From assembly GCF_003790525.1 (NCBI RefSeq), contig NZ_CP033635.1: 64,000 nt of DNA, one strand, 5' to 3'. This document shows positions 7,943-23,728 of this stretch, piece by piece. Every line of letters begins with the position of its first letter. The first letter of the stretch is position 1. The translations under genes and the position numbers were made by a program. Below the pieces are notes generated by a model that searched no databases, had not been told where the DNA came from, and worked only from the letters and a program-made list of their open reading frames with translations. Source of the stretch: Escherichia coli. Its GTDB lineage: Bacteria; Pseudomonadota; Gammaproteobacteria; Enterobacterales; Enterobacteriaceae.

Positions 7943-9196
7943 GTGAGCCGTACTACAACTGTTGATGGCGCTCCGGCAAGCGACACTGACAAGCAAAGCA
8001 TTTCTCAGCCAAATCAATTTATTAAACGCGGTACGCCGCAATTTATGCGCGTCACCCTGGCGCTGTTCTCTGCCGGACTGGCAACCTTCGCACTTCTCTA
8101 TTGTGTGCAACCTATCCTTCCGGTGCTTTCGCAGGAGTTTGGCTTAACGCCCGCGAACAGTAGTATTTCACTGTCCATTTCCACGGCGATGTTGGCTATC
8201 GGTTTGCTGTTTACTGGCCCGTTATCCGATGCCATTGGTCGCAAACCAGTGATGGTCACGGCGCTACTGTTGGCCTCCATTTGTACGTTACTTTCGACAA
8301 TGATGACCAGCTGGCACGGCATTTTGATTATGCGCGCCTTGATTGGGCTTTCGTTAAGTGGCGTAGCAGCTGTTGGCATGACTTATCTTAGCGAGGAAAT
8401 CCACCCCAGTTTCGTGGCCTTTTCGATGGGGTTGTATATCAGCGGCAACTCAATTGGCGGCATGAGCGGACGCTTAATTAGCGGTGTCTTCACGGACTTT
8501 TTCAACTGGCGAATTGCGCTGGCGGCAATCGGTTGTGTCGCGCTGGCCTCGGCGTTAATGTTCTGGAAAATCCTCCCTGAATCACGCCATTTTCGCCCGA
8601 CTTCGCTGCGACCTAAGACGTTGTTTATCAACTTTCGTCTGCACTGGCGTGACCGGGGATTACCGTTATTGTTCGCAGAAGGCTTTTTGCTGATGGGGTC
8701 GTTCGTCACGCTGTTTAATTACATCGGCTATCGGTTGATGCTCTCCCCCTGGCATGTCAGTCAGGCTGTGGTTGGCTTATTATCGCTGGCCTATTTGACC
8801 GGTACATGGAGCTCACCCAAAGCCGGAACCATGACCACCCGCTATGGGCGCGGTCCGGTGATGTTGTTTTCGACGGGGGTTATGCTGTTTGGTTTACTGA
8901 TGACCTTATTCAGCTCGCTGTGGCTGATCTTTGCCGGAATGTTACTCTTCTCAGCCGGATTCTTCGCAGCCCACTCCGTTGCCAGCAGCTGGATCGGCCC
9001 CCGCGCAAAACGCGCTAAAGGCCAGGCCTCCTCGCTGTATCTGTTCAGTTACTATCTGGGGTCGAGTATTGCCGGGACGCTGGGTGGTGTTTTCTGGCAT
9101 AACTATGGCTGGAACGGCGTCGGCGCATTTATTGCTCTGATGCTGGTCATTGCTCTGCTGGTCGGGACGCGTTTGCATCATCGTCTGCACGCCTGA
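7943..9196 (+). CDS. ynfM: MFS transporter
   Basis: 417 aa, about 12 predicted TM segments; divergent from ynfL. Confidence 0.85.
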   Translation: MSRTTTVDGAPASDTDKQSISQPNQFIKRGTPQFMRVTLALFSAGLATFALLYCVQPILPVLSQEFGLTPANSSISLSISTAMLAIGLLFTGPLSDAIGRKPVMVTALLLASICTLLSTMMTSWHGILIMRALIGLSLSGVAAVGMTYLSEEIHPSFVAFSMGLYISGNSIGGMSGRLISGVFTDFFNWRIALAAIGCVALASALMFWKILPESRHFRPTSLRPKTLFINFRLHWRDRGLPLLFAEGFLLMGSFVTLFNYIGYRLMLSPWHVSQAVVGLLSLAYLTGTWSSPKAGTMTTRYGRGPVMLFSTGVMLFGLLMTLFSSLWLIFAGMLLFSAGFFAAHSVASSWIGPRAKRAKGQASSLYLFSYYLGSSIAGTLGGVFWHNYGWNGVGAFIALMLVIALLVGTRLHHRLHA

Positions 9197-11746: not shown

Positions 11747-12157
11747 TGTCCTTCTCCTGCAAGAGAATTATTTTAATTTTCGCTTAATTCAGCGAAACCA
11801 AAGTAAAGTGGTCAAGCCCCGCGCATAGCGCAAGCTTAAGCAGGAGAAAGGACTAAAGCGCGTTGCGCCAGTGCTGCTCACCTACGAGCAAGATAGTGGA
11901 TGAGGTACGAAGATGGGTAAATGTAGAAAATAACGTCCTGAACAAATTGTCCATAATATTACAATTATCCGCAGTGTTGCTTCTCGTCATCGCGGATGAT
12001 AATTGTCCTCGGTAGTTGAACACGCCTGATTTGTATCATAGCTTAAGAATTAACTCAAAATATTTTCACTTCTTTACCTGAGCGGTTTGATTTTCGTTAT
12101 GATGACGGAGCGAAAAAGACATTATTATTAGCAAAGGAAGAAAAAACGGGGACAAGC

Positions 12158-12294
12158 ATGGCAAAGCCGATCATCACGCTCAATGGCCTAAAAATCGTCA
12201 TTATGTTGGGAATGCTGGTCATTATTCTCTGCGGTATCCGTTTTGCCGCCGAGATCATCGTGCCGTTTATTCTCGCATTATTTATTGCTGTTAT
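12158..12294 (+). pseudogene. tqsA: 5' fragment of tqsA (AI-2 exporter), first ~46 codons; reading frame then runs into element DNA and stops after 7 foreign codons
   Basis: ATG at 12158 encodes [45 protein letters not shown]; the remainder of the gene resumes in frame at 23729. Confidence 0.85.
12286..12294. repeat. attL core (direct repeat 'tgctgttat')
   Basis: Identical 9-mer at 23720-23728; chromosomal tqsA sequence on the left, element-specific sequence on the right. Confidence 0.7.
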
Positions 12295-12365
12295 ATATAA
12301 CTTATTTCGCTTAACTAATTGATTTAATTAAATAATTTGCACTACAAAAAGTGCCAAAAATCGCA

Positions 12366-12391
12366 AATTAACTACACCATTAACTACACCG
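12366..12391. repeat. 26-bp element-end repeat 'aattaactacaccattaactacaccg' (tandem 'ttaactacacc'), candidate integrase arm-type site, left end
   Basis: Exact 26-bp copy at 23567-23592 next to the int start; both copies in direct orientation just inside the element ends. Confidence 0.6.
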
Positions 12392-13466
12392 TTCGGCGCA
12401 CTGTATGAAACAACGTGGAACAAATAGACACAAGCGGCAGGCTATACCGTTATCATTTTTCAGCTATCCGTCATGAAGCTGGTGGATGATCACGGATAAC
12501 CAGGCATCTACAGCGCCTTAAAAAGCTGAACCCGACAAACATTTCTGCTTATCGGGTCCGATCGCTCTTTCTACTCGTGGCAGATGAGTTTACTAGGAAG
12601 GGGGGAACATTGTATCAGGCTATCCCCTTTCTGTGCTGATTCGGCTGGTGAATGATCTACTTGGGGCACTACACTTTTCGGATAGTGCGGGTATCCGGTT
12701 TTCTGCCTCATCGAATTTTAAGCCTTCTGACGGCCTGTATATCATTTCCTGTGGAGTTGCCGCCCTGATAGCGAATACTGCGGCAGCATGTGATTTACCC
12801 CCCGTTCTGTTGATGTTTGATGTGGCTGGTTGATGTGCTGCCATGTTTTCCGCCAATGGTGGAAAAGCCCACCAGCGCAACGCAGGACGCATAAAACCAT
12901 TGCGATGACTCTGGACGCAAAACCACGTTTAACGATGTTTTGCACTGAACCAGAATACTGTTCGTTTTTGTCTCGATGTCCGTACGTATTACGTCCGCAC
13001 CTAATCCGGCATCATGCCCACCAGCGTAACGCATTTTTTTAATTTCGTGGCTGTGCGTCCACCAGCTACGCCGGAATGGGGTATTCCGTTTCAACGGAAC
13101 AGGTATGACGAACATAATCGCACCTTCTCCCGAAAACGGTGCGACCTGCATCATCGAAATGGTGATTCAGCTACTCGGCGATTTTCACCATTCAGAATCT
13201 GGCGGGTGAGTTATCCAGCTTCCACCAATGGGGGATTCTGGAACAATCAACGGGTTACGCCTTATCAGCAAAAAAGCACATCAACTGTAAAGGAAATCGT
13301 TATGGTTGCTGGTGGGCTGCGTCACCATCATGGTGATGATGCTGTCCAGTCAGCCGGAACGGTTGAACAGGGTGGCTATGGGTCACTCTGTTGTGCGTTA
13401 TTTGCGTGATCCTGGTACGGGGTGACTATCTTTCAGATAGTCGGTTGCCTGGTTACACGAAAAAAT

Positions 13467-13775
13467 TTACTTCCTGCGTTTATCCTGCTTTGTATGCCCG
13501 TGCTGAATGCCCCGCAGTGGATCTTCTTTTTTCAGGTCGATCCCCATGTCCGTTAGTGTTTTTGTGGCGGCGGTTCTTATGGCACAAATCAGGTCTCTTT
13601 CCGGTTCCCGGGTTATGGTTGCCTTCCGGATGCATGCCGTTCGTCGTTCCGTTACATACTGACGCGCTTCATCACTTGCCGCCTGTTTCAGTAACTCACC
13701 CCAGCGATTAGCCGCCCGTCGCCATAAACCTTTCGCTTCCAGTTCTTCCGCTTTGTCATCATGCACCATAAGCAT
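13467..13775 (-). CDS. PerC-family-like putative transcriptional activator (copy 2)
   Basis: N-terminal MVHDDKAEELEAKGLWRRAANRWGEL resembles PerC/Pch activators (recalled) and is a paralog of the 17352-17624 ORF; start chosen at an internal Met. Confidence 0.45.
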   Translation of the reverse strand: MLMVHDDKAEELEAKGLWRRAANRWGELLKQAASDEARQYVTERRTACIRKATITREPERDLICAIRTAATKTLTDMGIDLKKEDPLRGIQHGHTKQDKRRK

Positions 13776-13883
13776 AATCCCATTGATACCTGTTAACTCT
13801 GAATGGTTGGTTTCTGTTCTTTTGATAATTTCCCGCATAGCTTATTGTATGACAGTACTGTCCCACAATAAGGAGTTGCACGC

Positions 13884-14174
13884 ATGAGAATGACTAGGCA
13901 CAAAAAACAGATTCTTGAACTCTACAAACCTGAGTATCGCGATTGGGTGCGGGTGGAGGCCGGAGATCCGCCTTTTGATGTTCGTGGTGTGACAGTGCTG
14001 CTCTATGGTTCCGAATATCGGCGATATCACATAGAGGCAACACGAAGGACGCTAAACGCTATGGTTCGTGATAAGTTGCTGGAGCGTGTGAAAGTCCGTG
14101 AGCCACGTTTTGATGTGCGTATTGGTGGCGATGGTGCGCATTGCACGGTAATCCGCTATGGCCTGGTAAGGTAA
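13884..14174 (+). CDS. hypothetical protein (96 aa), only plus-strand gene in the left half of the element
   Basis: ORF with ATG start; internal duplicated motif PPFDVRGV / PRFDVRIGG; followed by the palindrome 'cagaatgtaaatttacattctg'. No family recognised. Confidence 0.4.
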   Translation: MRMTRHKKQILELYKPEYRDWVRVEAGDPPFDVRGVTVLLYGSEYRRYHIEATRRTLNAMVRDKLLERVKVREPRFDVRIGGDGAHCTVIRYGLVR

Positions 14175-14276
14175 GCCATCGGGTAAATCAGATGATTAAA
14201 TCACCAGAATGTAAATTTACATTCTGCCAGCCACCAGCTACCCTCCTCAAAATTGAGGACCCTTTTTATCAACTGG

Positions 14277-14558
14277 TTACCGCCGCAACCGTTCCGGCTT
14301 CTTCCACTGATAAGTGTTTTTCGCGCTCTCCTGATACATCGCCACGCGTCGACGGTATGCCAGCAACTCTAGTACTCTGATTCGTATGTCGCGCATATCC
14401 ACGCCGTTAAGCTCAATACCATCACGGCGCATTACATCAGCAACAACACGCACATAATTTTCGGCGGTCACGCTGTCCGGCTGCGTGGCCTGTTCGTCAT
14501 GCTGCTGGCTGATTCCGGTAACGCGGCGGATTAATCCCAGTAGTTCGACTTCTGTCAT
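14277..14558 (-). CDS. hypothetical protein (~94 aa) immediately downstream of the cos/terS region
   Basis: ORF-track frame 14277..14756; start moved to the internal Met (MTEVELLGL...) so that it does not overlap the cos-like sequence. Function unknown. Confidence 0.4.
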   Translation of the reverse strand: MTEVELLGLIRRVTGISQQHDEQATQPDSVTAENYVRVVADVMRRDGIELNGVDMRDIRIRVLELLAYRRRVAMYQESAKNTYQWKKPERLRR

Positions 14559-14591
14559 TGTGCCCCCATCGCTCTGATAGTCTGGTGTCGT

Positions 14592-14655
14592 CGGGTCCTT
14601 TCCGGCATGTGGACCCGTTACGGGGCGTCGACCTCGCGCGTTTTCACTATTTATG
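14592..14655 (+). other. lambda-like cos site, copy A (cosN plus flanking sequence)
   Basis: 'cgggtcctttccgg...gttacggggcgtcgacctcgcgcgttttcactatttatgaaaattttt' closely parallels the phage lambda cos junction as I recall it ('...acgggtcctttccggtgatccgacaggttacg|gggcggcgacctcgcgggttttcgctatttatgaaaattttccgg'); the 12-mer gggcgtcgacct at 14623-14634 differs from the lambda cohesive end at one base. Confidence 0.75.
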
Positions 14656-14671
14656 AAAATTTTTCGGGATC

Positions 14672-14770
14672 CATGTCCGGTTTCTCTGCAAGTTAACCAT
14701 ATGAAAAATATAAAAACATGCTTTCCATGAACCGGACATGCGCAAAAAACAGACACTAAAACCGGACATC
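14672..14770. promoter_or_regulatory. cosB-like array: three 'ccggacat' repeats (one inverted, two direct) with an AT-rich spacer, candidate binding sites for the element's Nu1-like protein
   Basis: 'catgtccgg' at 14672-14680, 'accggacatg' at 14731-14740, 'accggacatc' at 14761-14770; located on the cosB side of cos copy A, where lambda has R3-I1-R2-R1. Confidence 0.5.
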
Positions 14771-14837
14771 GAACCAGTTAACCGAAAGTGTGCACAAATC
14801 ACATTCATTGCTGCGAGTGATTAACAAGTTATCGGCT

Positions 14838-15272
14838 TTACTGTTCTGTATCGGCTGATTGCTCCATGCTGGCACGGCGAACGCTTACGGCATGACGCCA
14901 CCCAGCCAGAAAGCCAGCCATTTTATTTCGTGCCTTGCTCACATCTTCCGGTGAATAGCCGTAAATATGCAAACCTTCATCAAATCGATGTTCTGTTTCT
15001 TCACTGGAGTACTCGTCACGCTCAGATGAAAGCAGCCTCGCAAACATAATTTTTTCCAGCGCACTGGTTTCTACGTGATATCCGATGGTCTGAAGATGGC
15101 TTTTACCTGAATACCAAAGCAATGTATGCCCGATGTGATAACCGCCAGACTTTCCGCGATCCGCATTAAGATACGGCATCCCCTGTTTGGTCCATGCGCG
15201 AATAGTGGTTCTGTTAACCTTGAAATGTTCAGCTATTTCCTGCTGACTTACAAAACAAGCTTTATCAATCAT
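14838..15272 (-). CDS. terminase small subunit Nu1-like DNA-binding protein (possible packaging-specificity/redirecting factor)
   Basis: N-terminus QQEIAEHFKVNRTTIRAWTKQGMPYL parallels lambda Nu1 KKQLADIFGASIRTIQNWQEQGMPVL (winged HTH); C-terminal half unlike Nu1; flanked by cos-like sites. Confidence 0.65.
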   Translation of the reverse strand: MIDKACFVSQQEIAEHFKVNRTTIRAWTKQGMPYLNADRGKSGGYHIGHTLLWYSGKSHLQTIGYHVETSALEKIMFARLLSSERDEYSSEETEHRFDEGLHIYGYSPEDVSKARNKMAGFLAGWRHAVSVRRASMEQSADTEQ

Positions 15273-15339
15273 AATGTTACCTTAACTGCATGGTTAAATA
15301 TCAATCAAGTGGTGGTGGTGTCACCTTCACGGAAAAACG

Positions 15340-15403
15340 TCATAAATAGCGAAAACGTGCGAGGTCGACGCCCCGTAACGGGTCCACATGCCGGAAAGGA
15401 CCC
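15340..15403 (-). other. lambda-like cos site, copy B (inverted copy of A, cosN plus flank, without the 'ccggacat' array)
   Basis: Reverse complement matches copy A at 62 of 64 positions; lies ~70 bp upstream of the Nu1-like gene start on the same strand. Confidence 0.7.
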
Positions 15404-15404
15404 G

Positions 15405-15430
15405 CAAAAAAAGCCGGATTTCTCCGGCCT
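15405..15430 (-). terminator. rho-independent terminator after the head-gene cluster (minus strand)
   Basis: Minus-strand hairpin ggccggagaaatccggcc followed by a T-run; related hairpin motif at 17324-17345. Confidence 0.5.
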
Positions 15431-15502
15431 TGTCTCAGATGGTTTTCAGTATGCGATAGATGTCGCCGTCATCGCCCTGGTTTGTGCCATCGTTCCCCCT
15501 GC

Positions 15503-15838
15503 TTATCGGGCCAGCGGCTGAACGGATACGCCGGAACCCGCAAAGGCGGCGCATTTTTTCGCATCGGTGTCGACGCTCTCAGGCCAGTTAACGGCGGCAA
15601 TATTGAATATCCCCGTCTTGTAACACTGTGCTGATTTCTGCTTTGACGTGTCCACAGGGTACGAGGTCAGATAAACAGCCTTGCCAGATTCCTTACCATC
15701 CCACGCCTTAAACTCGCCATTGTCTGCCAGCATCAGCGGGGTAAATTCCTGAATAACGCCAGCATCAGCGGCAAAATGTACCAGCGTCGTGGATACCTGT
15801 TGGCTGCCTGAAAATAACTCAATGTATGGAGCGTCCAT
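15503..15838 (-). CDS. head decoration protein, lambda gpD-like
   Basis: 111 aa; motifs TPLMLADNGEFKAWDG, YKTGIF, NWPE and KKCAAFAG parallel lambda gpD (TPLMLDTSSRKLVAWDG, YKSGTF, LWPE, KKRTAFAG) as recalled. Confidence 0.7.
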   Translation of the reverse strand: MDAPYIELFSGSQQVSTTLVHFAADAGVIQEFTPLMLADNGEFKAWDGKESGKAVYLTSYPVDTSKQKSAQCYKTGIFNIAAVNWPESVDTDAKKCAAFAGSGVSVQPLAR

Positions 15839-15849
15839 AGAATCCCCCG

Positions 15850-16905
15850 TTAAGCAATTTTGACGGTAACAAATTTGCGAATATCTGCCGGTACAGGCTG
15901 CGGTGCGCTGTGCGTCTGCACGTACTCAATCGCCGGATCGCCGTCCTCAATCCAGTTTTTCGGGTAGTACATGTTTTGCGTTGCGCCCGTTCTTACCGCT
16001 TCCTGATCCATAATCGCACCATATGCCACCAGCCCTTTATTGTTGGTGTTACCCAGGACCAGCAAATCAGGCTCAAGGAAATATTTTTCGGTCCCGTCGC
16101 TGTCAGTGTATTTGCCGGAATAGACGATAAGGGCCAGATCACCAAGATAGCCTTTAAAGCTCACCACTTCGCCCAGGTTTTTACAGGCCAGCTCGGCGGC
16201 GGATTCTGATCCACGGGAAAGATCGTACAGTTCACGGAATTTTTTAAAGCTGCGTAATGTGCGCCATACCTCACCGCCCATAATCATGACGTTGGCGGGG
16301 CAACCTGCCTGATCAGCATAAAGCTCGATGTCATAGATTGGGTCGTGCATGTCTTTATCCTGCTGGGACCATTTTTTACCACTGGCCTGCTGTATGATGC
16401 AGTTTTCCGGTATTTTCCAGTCGATTTCATAGCGTTCTATGCCTTCGCCCTCAATGATGTTTTTTCCGGTCGTTACCGCATTCACCGCCAGCCATTCCAC
16501 GCGCGCCTTAATGGCGTTTATCTGGCGGCGCATGTTGCCAGTAATCAGGCGCATACGGCGGTAAGTTGGATCGTTAAGCTGTGCCGGATCTTCTCCATCC
16601 ATGCGCATGATGGTCTTTGTTGGATCGATTTCGTGCTTTGGCTTCATGTAGCCTGGTTTAATCGTGCTGGTTTCGTACCCTTTATCGCGCTGGACCTGAC
16701 TACCCACCATAGGAGAACAGAACGCTGACATCGTAACCTCTTCAATGTCCAGGGTGTCCAGCATGATGTTTTGGGTGTTGAAGGTCGCCACGTTCGGGAA
16801 AAACAGCGTGGTAAACAGCGGACTAAATTTATATTCCGAAATATCCCCGCGATTCAGGTACGCGAAAAGCTGGTTAGTTGTAAGTGCCTTTGCTTTGCCT
16901 GTCAT
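15850..16905 (-). CDS. major capsid protein, lambda gpE family
   Basis: 351 aa; YKFSPLFTTLFFP and PGYMKPKHEIDP parallel lambda gpE FKFDPLFLRLFF and PGYVKPKHEVNP; similar length to gpE. Confidence 0.75.
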   Translation of the reverse strand: MTGKAKALTTNQLFAYLNRGDISEYKFSPLFTTLFFPNVATFNTQNIMLDTLDIEEVTMSAFCSPMVGSQVQRDKGYETSTIKPGYMKPKHEIDPTKTIMRMDGEDPAQLNDPTYRRMRLITGNMRRQINAIKARVEWLAVNAVTTGKNIIEGEGIERYEIDWKIPENCIIQQASGKKWSQQDKDMHDPIYDIELYADQAGCPANVMIMGGEVWRTLRSFKKFRELYDLSRGSESAAELACKNLGEVVSFKGYLGDLALIVYSGKYTDSDGTEKYFLEPDLLVLGNTNNKGLVAYGAIMDQEAVRTGATQNMYYPKNWIEDGDPAIEYVQTHSAPQPVPADIRKFVTVKIA

Positions 16906-17111
16906 TATTCACCTCCGTGAACCTGATTGATACCCAGCGCCGCACGCAAATAGGTGCGCACCTGCCAGCCTGTTGACGGCTCAACCATCGCCAGCGGATC
17001 AAGTCCTGCCGCAATGCCTGCTTTTACATTCTGCTGGTGGCGTTCCTTGAGCGCCTCCACGATGTCGGGGCTTATGTAGACCGTCACCCCGCCTTTTTTC
17101 TCTTCTGCCAT
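16905..17111 (-). CDS. hypothetical protein (68 aa), first gene of the head cluster
   Basis: ORF with ATG start, stop overlaps the capsid gene start; no family recognised. Confidence 0.4.
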   Translation of the reverse strand: MAEEKKGGVTVYISPDIVEALKERHQQNVKAGIAAGLDPLAMVEPSTGWQVRTYLRAALGINQVHGGE

Positions 17112-17323
17112 AGTCAGAAATTCCTCTTTGACTTAAAAAATCATAACTGGATGTTCATCCAGTCCTGATTATAATCATGATTGCATTTTGCGCAACAATA
17201 TTGAGTTACGTTGCAAATTATGAAATGATTATCCCGATCATGTGTGTCAGTTCACCATAAAAAACCTCGTATACAAAAGCCCCATAAGCCCCCTGTGACC
17301 TTATCGGGCTTTTTTTAGGCGTA

Positions 17324-17345
17324 AAAAAGCCGGATTGCTCCGGCT
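17324..17345 (-). terminator. rho-independent terminator downstream of the PerC-like gene (minus strand)
   Basis: Minus-strand hairpin gccggagcaatccggc followed by TTTTTT. Confidence 0.5.
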
Positions 17346-17351
17346 GTGTGC

Positions 17352-17624
17352 TCACTTCTGCGGGTAGTTGCGCCATATTGCTTTGCCAATACCAGCTATC
17401 CCCATTTGTTTTTCAGTGCGATTAACTGACCTTTTCAGAGCGCCTAAATCATCCGGCGGCTCCGGTGGCCTCTGTGCCTTACGGATACATTCCGCGCGAC
17501 GCATTGCCACCTGTTCGCGCTCCTTGTCTGTCTCCACCAGCCTCATAACTTCACCCCATCGCGCCGCCGCCCTCCGGTAAAAGCCTTTTGCCTCGAGTTC
17601 CTCCGCTATGCGGTCATGTACCAT
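17352..17624 (-). CDS. PerC-family-like putative transcriptional activator (copy 1)
   Basis: MVHDRIAEELEAKGFYRRAAARWGEV...; paralog of the 13467-13775 ORF; start placed at the internal Met just after the ssb stop. Confidence 0.45.
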   Translation of the reverse strand: MVHDRIAEELEAKGFYRRAAARWGEVMRLVETDKEREQVAMRRAECIRKAQRPPEPPDDLGALKRSVNRTEKQMGIAGIGKAIWRNYPQK

Positions 17625-17634
17625 CGTCACCCCC

Positions 17635-18045
17635 TCAGAACGGAATATCATCACCGTAAGGGTCATCGCCTCCCGCTGGTGGCTGATTACCCTGTGTGCC
17701 TGTGGTTTTGCGTCTGTTCCCGCCAGGACGTGCCGCACGGGCACTGATTACGCTGTCTGCAATAACCTGCCAGCCCTGCCGCGTTTCCCCGTTCTGTCCG
17801 GTCCACTGGCTGACCTGCATCGTGCCGGATACGCTGGCAACGTCGCCTTTTTGATGTTTAGCCAGAAAGTCGGCCTGTTTGCCAAATGCGATGACCGATA
17901 ACCATAACGTCGCCTGTCCGTCCTGTGCCTGGCCGCATGGTAAAGATACCGCCATACGCGCCAGCGTCATCGGTGTACCCTTACTGGTCTGTTTTACCTG
18001 CGGGTCGTCCACCAGCCGCCCGTAAGCTGCTATCTGTGCTGTCAT
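17635..18045 (-). CDS. ssb: single-stranded DNA-binding protein (SSB)
   Basis: 136 aa with OB-fold-like core, Gly/Pro/Gln-rich linker and the acidic C-terminal tail ...DDIPF typical of SSB. Confidence 0.7.
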   Translation of the reverse strand: MTAQIAAYGRLVDDPQVKQTSKGTPMTLARMAVSLPCGQAQDGQATLWLSVIAFGKQADFLAKHQKGDVASVSGTMQVSQWTGQNGETRQGWQVIADSVISARAARPGGNRRKTTGTQGNQPPAGGDDPYGDDIPF

Positions 18046-18284
18046 GCTGTCTGCTCTCCGGTTTTAACGTTGATGGTTGTTACCTGTTCTGCTTCGGCAA
18101 TATCCCGCTCTGTCAGCGTGGCAAAGTTTGCCGCCGTCGTTGTCATGAATGCGCTTATCAGTTCGGGATGTGCTTTCGCGTATCCTTCCCCTGTGTTGCG
18201 GTCGATGATTTTTATCGCCACCCTCAGCCAGTGCTCTGTAAGGTCAATGGCGCGGTGATCTGTCTTTTTGTGGCTTACCTTCAT
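18042..18284 (-). CDS. hypothetical protein (80 aa)
   Basis: ORF in the replication module, overlaps ssb start by 4 nt (coupled); no family recognised. Confidence 0.45.
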   Translation of the reverse strand: MKVSHKKTDHRAIDLTEHWLRVAIKIIDRNTGEGYAKAHPELISAFMTTTAANFATLTERDIAEAEQVTTINVKTGEQTA

Positions 18285-18287
18285 GAT

Positions 18288-18656
18288 TTACTCCAGAGTA
18301 CCGCTATTGCTGCTGTCGTTAACCGGATACCAGGCAAATACCATCGATTCACCACAGTGAACAAACTTCTTATCCGGCAGATAAAGGCACTCGCACATTC
18401 CCTCATCAGGACTATGCGGACTCATGCCCAGCTCACTGGTCAGCACGGGTAAGATTTCGCGGCAGGTGTTCCCCGCACCGAAATAATCAACCTCACAAAG
18501 CGCCCATGCAGCAATCGGGCTGTACCATTCCGTGCCGTCGTCGTCTTTGAACTTAGCCCACCAGCCAGGAAGGGCAGTTGATATGCTCAGTGTTTCAATT
18601 TCAGTGTTCATAAATTTACCTTCGGTATTTTGTCCTGCTGTTCGATTTTTATTCAT
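18288..18656 (-). CDS. hypothetical protein (122 aa or shorter)
   Basis: ORF directly downstream of the iteron region; Cys-containing; no family recognised. Confidence 0.45.
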   Translation of the reverse strand: MNKNRTAGQNTEGKFMNTEIETLSISTALPGWWAKFKDDDGTEWYSPIAAWALCEVDYFGAGNTCREILPVLTSELGMSPHSPDEGMCECLYLPDKKFVHCGESMVFAWYPVNDSSNSGTLE

Positions 18657-18860
18657 TGCTCACCATCTCTCACTTTTACTACTCACTTTTTAAAGCGTCT
18701 CGCTTCGTCTCACTTGAGATTTTTGTGTTTTGTATGTGCATGTTTCATAAGTGTTTTTTCACTGCTCACTTTTGAGCATGTATACAGGTGAGAAAGTGAG
18801 TAATTGTGTTAATATTTTGTAAAAACCTCACCATTACTCACTTTTACTACTCACTTTTTA
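18657..18860. repeat. iteron array, candidate replication origin ('ctcactttt' repeated ~7 times, one inverted, around an AT-rich core)
   Basis: Copies at 18669, 18682, 18709 (variant), 18765, 18793 (inverted), 18837 and 18850; 'ctcacttttactactcacttttta' occurs twice; lies immediately 3' of the rep ATPase gene. Confidence 0.6.
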
Positions 18861-20264
18861 CAGTGGTCCTACATCATCACCATCAATGTAAATCACGGCG
18901 TCTTTTTCCAGTTTGGCTAACCATCGCCGCATATTTTTCACGTCATACCCAAGCCGTTTCATGTCATCACGTAACAGCGGGATCGTGCACTTGTCGCCGT
19001 TCTGTGTGCGTGAACGGATGCACCCCCATAGCGCGGTATGGTTTTCCGTCTTGTTGCCTGCCTCCTCGATGCGCTCCAGTTCAGCAGGGGCGCGGGGAAC
19101 GTCAATCACCACCATGGACACAATTTCTTCGCCATCTGTATCGGTGAACACCTCCACGCTTTTAAGGTCGTATGCACTCTCTTTTGGCTCCTCTGCGTCC
19201 TTCATCTTCGTACACGCCGCAACCAGTGCTGTAACGTCTGAATTTTCCCTGCTGATTCGGTACTCTGCATCAAGCGCGGCACGGAATGCACTGGAACCAC
19301 GCGCCCCCTTTGTTTCATCCTTGCCGGAATGGTGAACCACCAGCACCGTGGCCCCTGTGGCCTGCTTTATCGCGTCACACCCCTGGATAAATGCGCCCAT
19401 ATCACGGGAATCATTTTCATCATTCCCACCAAAGCAACGGGCCAGCGTGTCGATCACAATCAGCCGCACATTTTCGCCCGTTCTGCTCTTAACAAGTCCG
19501 GCAGTCCTGATAACCTGCTCCACATAGTCAGGCGATGCAGGGAAAACAGGCGCGTTAATGATGCACAAATCTGTAACCACCTTGTCGTGGGTTATCTCCC
19601 ACGCCTTAACGCGGCGTTTTACGCCCATGCTGCCTTCACCAGCGATATAGATAACCGCACCCTTACTTACCCTGCGGCCTCCCCATGCCATACCTGTGGC
19701 AACATGGCACGACCAGGAAATGGCGAGGAACGATTTATAAGAACCGCTGGCCCCGTAGGTGCTGCATAATGACTCAGCCGGAATAAGCCCCTTAATGACG
19801 TAGCTTTGCTGCGCATCGAATCCCTCAGAACCCCATGAGATGGGAAGTGTGATTTTTCGCTTTCCGCCATTCATGACCAGGCTTTCCCCTCTCTCCCATG
19901 TTTCCCGTAGTCGTGGTAGCTGGTCGCTCCAGTCCTCCAGCAGTTCGAAATTTTCAGAAAGTAGCCGCGCCTCCTGGACTCCGGCGATCGCCAGTTTTGT
20001 GGCAATGGTCAGCATCTGCATATCGTCCAGGTTTCCGGCGCGTATGACCTTTACCCTGTATCGTCCTTCATCAACAATCTGTAAGTTGTCCAGTTCGCTT
20101 AACTGATAACGGCCCAGATAAACCGGAGGGATGGGATCGCCTGCTTTTTTGGCCTGTGCAATCATGTAATGTTCTGCAAAGGAGTGAGCATTATCACCCG
20201 CAAAAATAACCGCCTCAGTGTGTTTATCTTTCGGTAACAGTTTTACGTTCGGTGCAAGTTTCAT
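18858..20264 (-). CDS. replication protein with RecA-like P-loop ATPase domain (RepA/DnaB-like, satellite pri-rep type)
   Basis: 468 aa; Walker A YGASGSYKS, Walker B-like RLIVIDTL, HHSGK motif; C-terminal region possibly DNA-binding; iterons directly downstream. Confidence 0.65.
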   Translation of the reverse strand: MKLAPNVKLLPKDKHTEAVIFAGDNAHSFAEHYMIAQAKKAGDPIPPVYLGRYQLSELDNLQIVDEGRYRVKVIRAGNLDDMQMLTIATKLAIAGVQEARLLSENFELLEDWSDQLPRLRETWERGESLVMNGGKRKITLPISWGSEGFDAQQSYVIKGLIPAESLCSTYGASGSYKSFLAISWSCHVATGMAWGGRRVSKGAVIYIAGEGSMGVKRRVKAWEITHDKVVTDLCIINAPVFPASPDYVEQVIRTAGLVKSRTGENVRLIVIDTLARCFGGNDENDSRDMGAFIQGCDAIKQATGATVLVVHHSGKDETKGARGSSAFRAALDAEYRISRENSDVTALVAACTKMKDAEEPKESAYDLKSVEVFTDTDGEEIVSMVVIDVPRAPAELERIEEAGNKTENHTALWGCIRSRTQNGDKCTIPLLRDDMKRLGYDVKNMRRWLAKLEKDAVIYIDGDDVGPL

Positions 20265-20548
20265 TTCTTACCCCCTGCGACCAGCATTTCACGGATTTTG
20301 CGGATATAACTTGCAGCACGTTTCTGATTAACGGCTTTACGATGGCCCACCAGCGTGAAATCACGCCGGAACTGATAAACAGGCATAACGCAGTCATATT
20401 CGTAGCCTTCACGGCGGTAAGTGATGCGACGTTCCTCCACGCCCTTAATCATTACCGTGCCGCCGTAGTTATCACGGAAAATATCGCCGGGACGGATTTC
20501 AGGACGAGCGGGGCCGCTGGCATTAACGCCAGAATTTTTATTTTTCAT
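20261..20548 (-). CDS. hypothetical protein (95 aa), translationally coupled upstream of rep
   Basis: ORF overlapping the rep start by 4 nt; basic; no family recognised. Confidence 0.45.
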   Translation of the reverse strand: MKNKNSGVNASGPARPEIRPGDIFRDNYGGTVMIKGVEERRITYRREGYEYDCVMPVYQFRRDFTLVGHRKAVNQKRAASYIRKIREMLVAGGKK

Positions 20549-20553
20549 GTTTT

Positions 20554-20781
20554 TTATTCTCCGGTGTGCTGTTCTTTATATCTGTCGTGAATTGCCATCA
20601 CTGTATTTAATTCATTAATAACAGCCGTTAATAGCGTACGCACGGCAGAAAACATCATTGAATCAGATTCATCGCCACTTTCCTGCACATCAATTAAATT
20701 AAGTAGTAATGCGTCCATTTCCTTTGCGCGGATTAATGCCTTTTCACAATGAAAAATAACACCAAAGGGTATTTTATTCAT
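20554..20781 (-). CDS. hypothetical protein (~75 aa; ORF-track frame extends to 20823)
   Basis: First gene of the minus-strand replication operon; start uncertain (MNKIPFGV... versus the upstream Met). Confidence 0.4.
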   Translation of the reverse strand: MNKIPFGVIFHCEKALIRAKEMDALLLNLIDVQESGDESDSMMFSAVRTLLTAVINELNTVMAIHDRYKEQHTGE

Positions 20782-21060
20782 GACTCCCCTCCTGACGGAT
20801 ACGGGCGGCGAATACAGCGACACAACCGGACGGGCAACGGTTACGCGCTTCGCGTTCCGTCCAGGCGGTCACGTGGATAATTTGAGATTCTCCGGCACTC
20901 AGTGCCAGAAAACGCCACACAAAGGCGGTTTGTGTGTGCGCTAGTCGTGGGGTATGCTGTGTTCCAGCCATAATCGTTACTCCTGTTAACGGTTTGGTTA
21001 GACGCCCTGCATGTGTTACAGCACTGCGGGGCGTTGTCTTTTTAACGGCTTTCGTGATAG

Positions 21061-21104
21061 GGTGTACACCTATCAAGCAAAAACATAACGCTATAGGTGT
21101 ACAC
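21061..21104. promoter_or_regulatory. perfect 12-bp inverted repeat (gtgtacacctat ... ataggtgtacac), candidate operator abutting a small regulator gene
   Basis: Read directly from sequence; the 3' half ends 1 nt before the ATG at 21105. Confidence 0.5.
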
Positions 21105-21299
21105 ATGTCAACAGTTATTAAGCGAGATAAAAAACCAAAGGGAACAGGAAAAGCCCCCCCATTCCATATGCGAATAGCTCCAGAACTGAAAGAGCAGTTT
21201 GATAATGAGGCCAGCAATGATGGGGTAAGCCTAGCCAACTGGCTTAAAGAGTTGGGGCGCGCCGAACTAAAGCGACGCGGCATTGAACCTAAAGGCTGA
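21105..21299 (+). CDS. small basic protein (64 aa), possible ribbon-helix-helix/YlcI-YnfO-like prophage regulator
   Basis: MSTVIKRDKKPKGTGKAPPFHMRIAPELKEQFDNEASNDGVSLANWLKELGRAELKRRGIEPKG; family assignment from memory only; divergent from the replication operon. Confidence 0.4.
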   Translation: MSTVIKRDKKPKGTGKAPPFHMRIAPELKEQFDNEASNDGVSLANWLKELGRAELKRRGIEPKG

Positions 21300-21302
21300 T
21301 GT

Positions 21303-21426
21303 ATGACTGAAAAGCAGACCGATAACAAACTTTCTCTACCAGAGAATAAACCAGCAGGCTTCTTACCAAGAAAAATCCTTGATGAGATCAAACGCCGCCA
21401 GCGCCGCAAGGCCAAAGAGCAGGAAT
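21303..21426 (+). CDS. possible small protein (41 aa, Lys/Arg-rich C-terminus)
   Basis: ATG 4 nt after the preceding stop; MTEKQTDNKLSLPENKPAGFLPRKILDEIKRRQRRKAKEQE; followed by a strong hairpin terminator. Too short for the ORF track. Confidence 0.25.
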
Positions 21427-21460
21427 AGCCCACCAGCAAGCCAGCACACTGATCACATTG

Positions 21461-21490
21461 GCCACCGTGACAGGTGGCCTTTTCTTTGCC
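21461..21490 (+). terminator. rho-independent terminator (ggccaccgtgacaggtggcc + T-rich tract)
   Basis: Perfect 7-bp stem with 6-nt loop followed by ttttctttg, just after the 41-codon ORF. Confidence 0.55.
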
Positions 21491-21752
21491 CGTTATCCGG
21501 CAATTGTGGCGCTTCGCCACACGGTTGATATAATTCCCCTGCTCAGATTCATTTTTTGCGCGGCAGGTAAATTGTTCAGAAAGGCGGCTCCTTATCGGGG
21601 CCGCTTTTTTTATGTCTGAAAAACCGCGATTTTGTTGTTTTTCAGTTTCACCAGGCCGAACGAAGCCCCGCCCATGTTCGGGCGTATATCCAGTCTTCAT
21701 GGTTAAATCTCTGTATTAGTGGATGGGTGGCGGCTGTGTGCCGCCAGTCTTT

Positions 21753-21941
21753 TTAGTGAACTGCCTCGCAGCTTTCCTTCCATGCCAGAACTTCGGATAA
21801 AGACCAGCCAACGGAACGACCGCCCAGCTTACGCCGTGATGGGAATTGTCCGGCCTTTTCCAGGCGGTAGCGGCATGAGCGGCTAAGGCCTGTTAGCTTT
21901 TCGCATTCTTTTTCACGTATAAAGCGATCAGTGCTTAACAC
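21753..21941 (-). CDS. alpA: AlpA-family (Phage_AlpA) transcriptional regulator
   Basis: 62 aa; ...EKLTGLSRSCRYRLEKAGQFPSRRKLGGRSVGWSLSEVLAW... matches the AlpA HTH signature; adjacent to int. Confidence 0.75.
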   Translation of the reverse strand: MLSTDRFIREKECEKLTGLSRSCRYRLEKAGQFPSRRKLGGRSVGWSLSEVLAWKESCEAVH

Positions 21942-22315
21942 TATTGCCCCCTTTCGTTTCTTAAAGAGTTATTTCGTGTTCTATTGCGTTGGGATGTGTC
22001 TGATTGTGTCAGGGTGATTCAGAGTTGGCAAATGTTGGTGGCGGGTATTTTACAGAAACGGGGTGATTTTAATAAAAATCATTTTAATTCAGTATTATGC
22101 AAAGGCATAAAATCTCGTTTTATGCCTTTTTTCTCACTATTTAAAGCGTTATTCGCTAATGTATAAAAAACCAGTTGAGCATTAAAAATCAGCAACTTAT
22201 AAATCTGTATACTTTTTGACCTCTTGTTCGTGGTTGTTTCACGTTGTTGTGTATTGTTGCACGTTGTATCTGTGCACTTATCCAGTATGCGCATACTGAA
22301 AAAACACGAAAAAAA

Positions 22316-23563
22316 TTATTTTCTTCTGGCTACTGGTAGCGTGGTTACGTTTTCATGTGCTCCCGCCAGTATCTCCAACCGCTCCACCCACATATCCAGC
22401 GCATTGCGTTTCGCATCCAGATAACGGGAATGATTATAAACTCGCTGCATTCCTGGCATCTGGTGGCCTGTAAGCTGCTCCACGACGTGAGGATCCACGC
22501 CTAAATCGTTCAGCATCGTTGTAAAGGTGCGCCGGATGTCATGCAGTGACCATTGAGGGTGTTTTAGCCTCCTGTGCGCTAATCTGCCGTACTGCGATAC
22601 GCTGGCCTCCTGTTTCACTTCCCCCAGTAATAAGCCCGTGTGCCTGTTCTGCTCCACCAGCCGCGTGACGAACGGCAGGATCGCTTCCGGTATGGGCCGG
22701 AATATTGCGACCTTCGTTTTGCTGTGCTCCTTCGGAACGGTCCAGAGCATTTCCGTGAAATCCCACTCCCCGATCTCCGATAACCTCAGTTCTACCGTCC
22801 TGGCTCCGAAGACAATCAGGAGGCGGATTAGTGCGACGTAGTAAGGGGAAAATATTTTTTTGTCCAGTGCCTGCAATAATTCGCCCAGTTCTTTGGTGCT
22901 TAAGACACGTTCGCTTATATCCGGTTTTTTCCCAACGTCCGCCACGTTCAGATCGTCCAGAACGTTGCTGATTGCATAGCGCCGCCTCCGGCAAAACTTA
23001 AGCGCCTGTTTGCACGCCTGTAGCACGAATCCGGCAGTAACAGGCGTTCGCTTTGCCACCCGATCAAAACAGGCCAGCCAGTGCCGTAGCTCGCATTTAT
23101 CCAGCGGCATAGCACCAATGTGCTGTATTACGTGATTATTAAGTCGCCTTTTCAGGGCGATATAATCCACGCGGTTTTCCTTTACGTAAGACTCAAGCCA
23201 GTAGGTGAGCGCATCTCCAACCGTTACAGGCTTTAACGCTTCCTGCATGGTGTAATTCATCTCATGACGTGGATTTTTCCCCTCAGCCAGCCATGCGCGA
23301 CACTGGGCGGCTTTTTCCCTGGCTGATTTCAGGCTCAGATCAGGATAATTTCCCAGCTTAATACGTTCCGGTCGTGTCTCTCTTCCCGTTCCGGCCCTGT
23401 AAGTGAAATACCAGGTTAAAAGGCCGCTGGTTGAATGCCTGACGCTCAGATTTCCACCGTCATTAAGAAAGGCTGTTTTTTGGGCGGGTGTGCCGTTGAT
23501 TTTCCTTAGCTGTGTATCGCTCAGCTTGTTAAGTGCTCTGGTCATAATTTTGAATCCGGTCAT
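22316..23563 (-). CDS. int: tyrosine site-specific integrase (P4-type)
   Basis: ~415 aa; N-terminal arm-binding-like region, C-terminal catalytic motifs (HDIRRTF, GHQ..VYNHSRY); located at the element's right end next to the arm-type repeat. Exact start uncertain (GTG/ATG/ATG cluster). Confidence 0.85.
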   Translation of the reverse strand: MTGFKIMTRALNKLSDTQLRKINGTPAQKTAFLNDGGNLSVRHSTSGLLTWYFTYRAGTGRETRPERIKLGNYPDLSLKSAREKAAQCRAWLAEGKNPRHEMNYTMQEALKPVTVGDALTYWLESYVKENRVDYIALKRRLNNHVIQHIGAMPLDKCELRHWLACFDRVAKRTPVTAGFVLQACKQALKFCRRRRYAISNVLDDLNVADVGKKPDISERVLSTKELGELLQALDKKIFSPYYVALIRLLIVFGARTVELRLSEIGEWDFTEMLWTVPKEHSKTKVAIFRPIPEAILPFVTRLVEQNRHTGLLLGEVKQEASVSQYGRLAHRRLKHPQWSLHDIRRTFTTMLNDLGVDPHVVEQLTGHQMPGMQRVYNHSRYLDAKRNALDMWVERLEILAGAHENVTTLPVARRK

Positions 23564-23566
23564 CAC

Positions 23567-23592
23567 AATTAACTACACCATTAACTACACCG
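23567..23592. repeat. 26-bp element-end repeat (same as 12366-12391), right end, immediately upstream of int
   Basis: Exact 26/26 identity with the left copy. Confidence 0.6.
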
Positions 23593-23719
23593 ATCGTTGC
23601 ACAAAGGGCTACAACGTGAAACAAGCTGGAACAAGAAAAATCACAAATTTGTTTATAATCAAAAACATAATGCACAACCTGAAACATTATGAAACGGCAA
23701 AAAACACTAATTGATAAAG

Positions 23720-23728
23720 TGCTGTTAT
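23720..23728. repeat. attR core (direct repeat 'tgctgttat')
   Basis: Identical to 12286-12294; element sequence on the left, tqsA sequence on the right. Confidence 0.7.

Follow-up and report, generated by a model that had tools for sequence, protein, structure and literature searches.

The closest described systems to the locus reported here are the eta region of the satellite phage P4 and the Gram-negative phage-inducible chromosomal islands (PICIs). As given in the part of PMC10111431 that summarises Forti et al. 1999, transcripts from a constitutive promoter inside P4 eta terminate prematurely while CI-RNA immunity holds, translation of full-length eta depends on transcripts of the upstream late promoter only, and this translation, which is coupled to the alpA homologue, prevents termination so that the downstream genes are reached. 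A passage of the same article (Mageeney et al. 2023) already compares genes of the PICI 'Bro zone' to P4 eta. For the PICIs, the published model has AlpA as an activator, unidirectional transcription and no clear repressor, and in EcCICFT073 the gene downstream of alpA requires AlpA for its expression (PMC6092414). The PICI model leaves unexplained how transcription from the AlpA side reaches the replication genes, and the locus described here, positions 21,430-21,752 of a 64,000-nucleotide (nt) stretch of an Escherichia coli chromosome (NCBI RefSeq assembly GCF_003790525.1, contig NZ_CP033635.1; the whole stretch is called the window), has a layout that offers a testable mechanism. The interval lies between alpA and a convergent small-regulator operon, in an 11.7-kb island (window ~11984-23721) that interrupts tqsA and that is, judged from its genes, a PICI-type, P4-related phage satellite. 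We regard it as fairly probable that the interval heads the regulatory switch of this satellite, with terminators that act on the plus strand and, on the minus strand, an eta-like open reading frame (ORF) that would permit read-through toward the replication operon.

The hairpins of the interval are in themselves ordinary terminators, and the eta principle dates from 1999 and was tied to PICIs in general terms in 2023. New with respect to the published descriptions that we found is an eta-like frame without a CI RNA, which runs antisense through a convergent cassette of protein regulators and its one-way terminators and which is kept only as an open frame. In this way the eta principle would reach elements in which the CI RNA has been lost. 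A convergent small regulator gene, embedded terminators and a neutral stop-free ORF do not figure in the published PICI model, whereas the window element has all three.

The long minus-strand frame and its probable counterpart in P4

On the minus strand an ORF of 308 codons runs from 21700 to 20774. It begins with an ATG at 21698-21700, preceded by a Shine-Dalgarno (SD)-like GAGA at 21709-21712, and ends in frame with an Icd-like gene that makes up its last 66 codons. This Icd/Kil-like gene (20774-20971, minus strand; 65-66 amino acids (aa)), which is annotated by the Prokaryotic Genome Annotation Pipeline (PGAP), has its own AGGAG SD before the ATG at 20971 and is nested at the 3' end of the long ORF. 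The model NCBIfam NF033153 matches the short Icd-like protein with E 4.9e-18 and the long ORF with E 7.3e-17, in the latter case at residues 260-303 only.

The order of an AlpA/Vis protein, a long ORF and a nested Icd/Kil gene is that of P4, where vis (ORF88) encodes a protein of the Phage_AlpA family and the long ORF is directly next to it, as with alpA here. The P4 ORF (8812/8761->8168) has ATGs at 8767-8759 that overlap or abut the vis stop (0-2 nt), whereas the ATG here is 52 nt from the alpA stop; at the end of the P4 ORF (8168) the 65-aa Kil is nested in the same frame, like the Icd-like gene of the window. P4 Kil matches the same model as the window gene (NF033153, E 1.4e-20; residues 161-208 of the P4 ORF); BLASTP of P4 Kil against the short Icd-like protein gave no alignment, and the homology rests on this common hidden Markov model. 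In both elements the short gene has its own SD and replication (primase/helicase) genes lie downstream; in P4 the short gene is driven by PLE, a leftward promoter within the long ORF, and the window has a promoter-like site at the corresponding place. The elements differ in that int is upstream of alpA in the window, and in that a convergent HicB-like protein-regulator operon with its plus-strand terminators, which P4 does not have, takes the position that the RNA module holds in P4. There, a C4-family CI RNA (8420-8507) and an IsrK-like element (8615-8692) overlap the eta ORF, whose translation is what Pfam knows as the Ash domain (PF10554; residues 37-161 of P4 eta). On this comparison the long ORF of the window looks like a likely counterpart of P4 eta.

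Phage P1 offers a further parallel, as translation of icd is reportedly needed there against premature termination before ant. In the immI region of P1/P7 (c4 RNA - icd - ant) a gene of the Icd family heads the operon, as it does here; the P1 c4 RNA lies on the same strand upstream of icd, whereas no c4-like RNA was detected in the window with Rfam.

Related elements were gathered from E. coli genomes and IMG/VR contigs with two DNA patterns, and all comparisons are confined to these E. coli and IMG/VR elements; the sequences are mosaic and share common ancestry, so counts among relatives are not independent. An earlier note on this DNA, made from the sequence alone, had named the lack of a transcript, together with variability or absence in related elements, as what would speak against its ideas about the region. 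Of 5426 complete E. coli genomes, 1192 have the interval, and often more than once. Its copies are mosaic, with breakpoints at ~21466, 21558 and 21615, and the hairpin T2, described below, is their common core. The same note had called the interval non-coding and the ORF at 20774-21700 seemingly spurious. The first label is inaccurate, as a conserved open frame of the minus strand spans the whole interval, and the second is not supported as it was put: amino-acid constraint is lacking, yet the frame is kept open over 300-600 codons and ends in or just before the Icd-like gene.

In the window the frame of the long ORF has no stops, compared with 19 and 14 in the other two minus-strand frames, and in the relatives the sister frames hold 13-49 stops over an equal span. 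Most related satellites have the frame stop-free for 300-600 codons, and conservation extends to the ATG and to a GAG(A/G) some 10 nt before it. An ORF of 306-474 codons is fused in frame to Icd in 38 of 73 distinct related sequences, while most of the others stop 10-25 nt before the icd ATG; among 66 distinct Icd arrangements, 42 have at least 311 open codons upstream. The open frame crosses inserts that are mutually non-homologous, namely different regulator genes, duplicated cassettes, a Bro/AntA fragment and a C4/IsrK RNA module (elements L006 and L042). In the AntA-type elements (L088, L116 and L124), where a gene for a 266-aa AntA/AntB antirepressor (Pfam AntA, E 2.4e-23) follows alpA, an open frame of 453-606 codons begins at a ATGTGTAA overlap with the antA stop and runs through T2 to the end of Icd (nt 769-2330 of the eta strand after the alpA-proximal ATG). 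The first ~17 codons of the window ORF (MKTGYTPEHGRGFVRPG; 21650-21700, minus strand) share an N-terminal peptide with the 5' end of the 266-aa gene and are, by this likeness, a remnant of the antA gene.

Over codons 1-91 of the long ORF pN/pS is 0.92 and the variable columns number 29/33/32 by codon position, compared with a pN/pS of 0.14 and 5/0/16 variable columns for alpA in the same eight genomes. These 273 nt have undergone at least 107 substitutions, of which 4.4 would be expected to create a stop and 0 did so (P ~0.012), and the 270-nt 'non-coding' part, when shuffled, remains open in 0.8% of trials. Scoring by codon usage did not separate real genes from the long ORF. The pattern of substitutions points to selection for an open frame and not on the protein that it encodes. 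The opposite view, that the 308-aa ORF yields a long Icd-like protein which is functional and in which the N-terminal 240 residues do something of their own, appears highly improbable to us. It would agree with the 'Icd-like' proteins of 194-529 aa annotated by RefSeq and others and with 2066 relatives in the databases, but it is contradicted by the near-neutral pN/pS with equal variation at the three codon positions, by a family match confined to the Icd part, by compensatory changes in the T2 stem that are non-synonymous in this frame, and by N-terminal parts that are swapped wholesale between elements.

Hairpins T1 to T3 and the direction of termination

The three hairpins with T-tracts lie within 1-2 nt of where the earlier note had placed them, and Pfam together with the ORF and PGAP annotation bears out its description of the flanks, with alpA on one side and small plus-strand regulator ORFs on the other. 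T1 (21460-21479, with its tail to 21488; plus strand) has the form GGCCACC-GTGACA-GGTGGCC followed by TTTTCTTTG. It stands directly after a PGAP-annotated 41-aa ORF (21303-21428, plus strand), the second gene of the convergent small-regulator operon. T2 (21583-21604, with its tail to 21611; plus strand) is an 8-base-pair (bp) GC stem, GGCGGCTCC-TTATC-GGGGCCGC, followed by T7 at 21605-21611. T3 (21728-21746, with its tail to 21754; T-run on the plus strand) is a 7-bp GC hairpin, TGGCGGC-TGTGT-GCCGCCA, followed by GTCTTTTT with a run of T5; it lies 6 nt past the alpA stop, and its tail overlaps the stop codon (21753-21755).

A scan for the terminator consensus over 20400-22600 gave 10 sites, compared with 2.4 +/- 1.2 in shuffles, and calls T1 (7 pairs, 6 of them GC) and T3 on the plus strand. 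The folding energies on the plus and minus strands are -15.7 and -15.1 kcal/mol for T1, -21.1 and -13.1 kcal/mol for T2, which is thus 8 kcal/mol better on the plus strand, and -17.7 and -13.9 kcal/mol for T3. T2 is weaker on the minus strand because a U·G pair of the plus strand turns into a C·A mismatch. Compared with dinucleotide shuffles, the whole 323 nt has a folding z of -5.5 on the plus strand and -4.2 on the minus strand. The T-runs of all three hairpins are on the plus strand only, and no hairpin of the interval has a U-run on the minus strand. The combination of a GC stem and an immediate U-run that is typical of intrinsic terminators is accordingly found on the plus strand in T1, in T2 and, in this element, in T3, and on the minus strand in none of them.

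Covariation across related elements, which the earlier note had proposed as a check, is seen as compensatory changes in the stems of both T1 and T2. In T1, GGCCACC/GGTGGCC is changed to GGCGACC/GGTCGCC (C:G -> G:C) and the T-run is retained, and in T2 a compensatory C:G -> T:A change is found together with a second form in which 1 base is lost from each arm and pairing is kept. In related elements 11 distinct T2 cores occur; 10 of them fold better on the plus strand, and the mean difference is -3.9 kcal/mol. T1 is confined to elements of the window type (variant A). In the variant-B elements, which are without T1, T2 is the sole hairpin after the plus-strand genes, and it is also the sole one in elements with a full AntA-type gene after alpA, where it lies ~20 nt past the stop of that gene. 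The T3 hairpin is kept in 11 of 11 distinct variants, its plus-strand T-run in only 12 of 69 copies. T1 and T2 are, by these features, intrinsic terminators of the plus-strand regulator operon, T2 being the universal one. T3 can serve as a third, back-up terminator in this window, and in general is just a stable stem after the alpA stop. Since the T-runs are on the plus strand only, the stems covary and T2 pairs better on the plus strand, T1 and T2 would halt the regulator operon and not alpA; and since the minus strand has no U-run, the stack would insulate alpA-int from the regulator operon and not the reverse. The suggestion that stacked terminators insulate int-alpA is therefore supported for transcription coming from the regulator operon toward alpA, and not for leftward transcription.

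In their GC hairpins with U-runs, in the covariation of their stems and in their placing between converging units these hairpins are like the ordinary terminators of convergent genes. They differ from them in having their U-runs on the plus strand only and in lying inside a conserved open frame of the opposite strand, not in an untranslated spacer. A plain insulator, that is, tandem terminators between convergent units and nothing more, with a long ORF that is fortuitous and is annotated because pipelines start at the Icd-like domain and extend it backwards, is in our judgement unlikely. Such an insulator is in line with the hairpins being genuine terminators, with the neutral evolution of the Cys/Arg/Ser-rich ORF product, with PGAP leaving the ORF unannotated in the genome of strain CM2, to which the window is 100% identical, and with the fact, treated below, that the stretch antisense to the plus-strand genes is fairly often open by chance. 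However, it leaves unexplained that 300-600 stop-free codons recur across non-homologous inserts, that the frame is repeatedly phased with Icd or ends shortly before its ATG, that start and stop overlap in the AntA-type elements, and that stop-creating substitutions are absent.

The same stack could be read with AlpA as a processive antiterminator, the hairpins being terminators that RNA polymerase modified by AlpA reads through. This is modelled on Pseudomonas aeruginosa, where AlpA is described as a Q-like antiterminator that bypasses intrinsic terminators (PMC7969949). The requirement of AlpA for downstream gene expression in PICIs (PMC6092414) would fit, as would the UUUCU that follows T2 on the minus strand. 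Nevertheless, the U-runs and the better pairing are on the plus strand, opposite to alpA, while on the minus strand T1 and T3 are without a U-tract and T2 has the C·A mismatch; the conserved open frame is also left unexplained, and we hold this reading to be very improbable. A boxA-like sequence on the minus strand after T2 (CUUUCUGAACAAUUUACC) was compared with the rrn boxA and dropped, as only 7 of 13 positions match without gaps.

Proposed read-through toward the replication operon and a candidate antisense RNA

The reading that we prefer, a switch of plus-strand terminators and minus-strand read-through, would work as follows. On the plus strand T1 and T2 would be working terminators with T3 as back-up, by which the regulator operon would be kept from antisense transcription of alpA-int. 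As alpA is the upstream gene on the minus strand, its transcripts would enter the interval running leftward, and because the hairpins are one-way, transcripts from upstream of alpA would pass T1-T3. Ribosomes would start at ATG 21700 and translate through the hairpins, antisense to the regulator genes, over the internal icd promoter and into the Icd/Kil-like gene. As for P4 eta, being translated would matter and not the product: ribosome traffic would cover ~730 nt of RNA that is not translated otherwise and would spare it premature termination, which would probably be Rho-dependent, and icd would receive ribosomes as well. Transcription induced by the helper and boosted by AlpA would in this way reach the icd-DUF4222-repA replication operon regardless of a repressed internal promoter. 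From the analogy with P4 and the AlpA dependence in EcCICFT073 we infer that the ORF is translated, that Rho is involved, that the internal promoter is active and that the regulators act as repressors. Stretches with C>G in the minus-strand RNA at 21323-21168 and 21752-21662 are weakly compatible with Rho loading.

The plus-strand regulator genes (21105-21428) converge on alpA and lie antisense within the eta-like ORF. The first of them encodes a HicB/ribbon-helix-helix-like protein of 64 aa (21105-21299, plus strand; annotated by PGAP), with weak matches to Pfam HicB and NCBIfam TraJ; in related elements genes of the YlcI/YnfO type occupy the same position. A sequence scan found a putative, consensus-like leftward promoter, TTGACA-18-TATGTT, at 21111-21082 on the minus strand, whose TTGACA overlaps the first codons (ATGTCAAC) of the HicB-like gene. 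On either side of it stands a copy of an operator-like palindrome (GTGTACACCTAT / ATAGGTGTACAC, 19 nt apart, 21061-21111). Element L002 has different palindromes (GGTAATTACC) at the equivalent place, as expected for repressor-specific operators, which the palindromes look like. The promoter-like site may be regarded as the positional analogue of P4 PLE, and a like function is suggested by that analogy.

Two other hairpins lie near this site. One, terminator-like and with a U-rich tail (GGAATGGGGGGGCTTTTCCTGTTCC CTTTGGTTTT), is on the minus strand at 21141-21165, inside the read-through ORF and ~30 nt upstream of the internal promoter; it is specific to the HicB-like module of this element and, if real, would be a translation-sensitive stop for transcripts from the alpA side. 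The other, at 20997-21045, has the form ACGCCC..GGGCGT followed by TTGTCTTTTT on the plus strand and precedes the icd start by 25-35 nt. It is kept in nearly all related elements, with a variable, partly compensating inner stem, is usually 4-7 kcal/mol better on the plus strand, where its T-run lies, and gives a weak match to Rfam SymR (24.7 bits, E 0.067). It could be a structure in the icd mRNA leader, or else a plus-strand terminator for a transcript that is antisense to the ribosome-binding site of icd.

Several points weigh against a read-through ORF of the eta type. The part that is antisense to the plus-strand genes is often open by chance, with a probability of 0 stops of 0.3-0.64 per gene in codon shuffles and synonymous resampling; the signal therefore comes from the non-genic parts, from the phasing with icd and from the recurrence across modules. 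Several relatives have shortened ORFs of 42-250 aa. The SD before ATG 21700 is weak (GAGA at 10-nt spacing), and the distance of this ATG from the alpA stop is unlike the abutting arrangement in P4. The window has no match to C4, c4-a1b1 or isrK in Rfam, even at E <= 10, a seqA-type element as in P4 is absent from it, and Pfam finds no Ash domain in its ORF. Finally, translation of the frame and Rho-dependent termination are here carried over from P4. Sister elements have Rfam C4 antisense RNA and isrK inside the eta-like ORF, as in P4 (L006, 1512-1697; L042, 7400-7911), L042 also has c4-a1b1 targets, and L088 holds the Rfam 'int-alpA RNA' motif (2570-2637), which the window element is without. 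As these motifs occur in sisters and none of them in the window, the immunity zone is modular.

It is tempting to go one step further and speculate that the ~1-kb ORF is kept purely for translation, free to drift and recombine as long as it stays stop-free and phased with icd, and that its head-on course through the repressor operon makes a convergent toggle; this we put forward tentatively, as a possibility that is rather less likely than not to be correct. In the quiescent state, plus-strand transcripts (repressor mRNA and perhaps a ~70-nt RNA ending at T2) would be antisense to the ORF and silence it, and leftward transcription would die. After helper-induced transcription of alpA, ribosome-coupled polymerases would push through, collide with and silence the repressor operon, and open the replication operon. 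Such a toggle, if true, could be the missing link from AlpA activation to the expression of replication genes in Gram-negative PICIs, and could explain the apparent absence of a repressor in them.

The ~70-nt RNA is a candidate in its own right. An extended -10-like element, TGATATAAT (21526-21534, plus strand), is found in the T1-T2 segment, ~50 nt upstream of T2, and could be the promoter of a small RNA that starts at ~21541 and has its 3' end at the U-run of T2. Such an RNA, compatible with the eta-like reading, would be perfectly antisense to codons ~30-53 of the ORF and would block its translation or trigger cleavage, as a cis-acting immunity RNA like P4 CI or P1 c4; in elements without T1 its equivalent would be RNA from the 3' untranslated region of the regulator operon. 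We consider it possible, with the balance of the evidence leaning against it. In its favour are the perfect extended -10 between two terminators, with TGATATAA kept in six variant-A sequences and TATCAT at the aligned position of variant B, and a nearly invariant block, GCGCRGCRGGTWAWYTGTTCAGAAAGG (21558-21582), just upstream of T2, which the otherwise divergent variants A, B and C share; in the minus-strand frame no synonymous variation is seen over the ~27 nt that precede T2. The predicted RNA has a strong terminal hairpin with U7 and a folding z of -3.75, and the sisters have their C4 and IsrK RNAs in the same zone. Against these stand the lack of a recognisable -35, the site being missed by a two-hexamer promoter scan, a TATAAC at the -10 position of one relative, and the lack of conserved structure upstream of T2. 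Rfam 15 gave no family at the gathering threshold in the 64-kb window, and its best sub-threshold matches in the interval, isrD on T1 (22 bits, where the threshold is 37) and look-alikes of terminators on T2, are none of them above chance. Table S2 of Tree et al. 2014 has no orphan Hfq-CRAC peak (EcOnc) inside Sakai Sp7, and an RNAduplex scan of the island for targets of the small RNA gave energies no better than those of shuffled queries. EcOnc33, an Hfq-bound RNA of ~71 nt, was considered as a published match and rejected, as its locus is in the lambdoid prophage Sp6. A palindrome, GTGGCG-CTT-CGCCAC (21506-21520), is also found between T1 and the -10-like element; it is only partly kept in relatives and has a mixed strand preference.

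Distribution, annotation and neighbouring features

About one complete E. coli genome in five has a satellite with the interval; examples are Sp7 of O157 Sakai, which is a capsid-forming island of the PICI type beside roxA, and an element of a CFT073-like strain. A scan of genome contigs with AlpA peptides gave only two distant loci, in Geobacter and in an alphaproteobacterial metagenome-assembled genome; blastn of the interval against the phage collection gave no match, and tblastn of the long ORF against the same collection gave no P4 match. An estimate of pN/pS for the plus-strand regulator genes was underpowered, the relatives with those genes differing by only 1-2%.

The locus also exposes a systematic problem of annotation, as one and the same frame is left unannotated, called 'Icd-like protein' or called a pseudogene. 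In RefSeq genomes it appears as an Icd-like protein of 194-529 aa, as a pseudogene or not at all, an inconsistency that touches hundreds of genomes. In O157 Sakai (L132; NC_002695.2 1596731-1597474, ECs_1576) the eta-like frame is a hypothetical protein of 247 aa and alpA is omitted.

On the minus strand of the island the order is int, alpA, the Icd-like gene, DUF4222, a RepA-family helicase, single-stranded DNA-binding protein (SSB), two PerC genes, major capsid and head decoration. The gene int (22316-23566, minus strand) lies upstream of alpA (21753-21941, minus strand), which encodes a 62-aa helix-turn-helix protein of the Phage_AlpA/Vis family (Pfam PF05930, E 5e-18; labelled helix-turn-helix regulator by PGAP), and the helicase gene is at 18858-20264 on the minus strand. 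As read from the genes only, the features by which Gram-negative PICIs are recognised are present: int, alpA, primase/helicase and PerC in this order, a size of ~12 kb and an own chromosomal attachment (att) site. Gram-negative PICIs and capsid-forming PICIs such as EcCICFT073 and Sakai Sp7 have in common the order int - alpA - variable zone - primase/helicase - PerC - capsid genes. The capsid part of the island consists of major capsid and head decoration only and is, unlike Sakai Sp7, without portal, protease and terminase, which is an unusual partial module for a satellite.

Just past the int stop, at 22234-22267, are two 14-nt direct repeats (TTGTTTCACGTTGT / TTGTTGCACGTTGT), 20 nt apart, which could be arm-type sites of Int or sites of AlpA. 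Also between int and alpA, at 22101-22129 and upstream of a candidate alpA promoter (22031-22003, minus strand), there is a perfect 12-bp inverted repeat (AAAGGCATAAAA / TTTTATGCCTTT) followed by T6 on the plus strand, which has the appearance of a terminator-like hairpin in the plus orientation.

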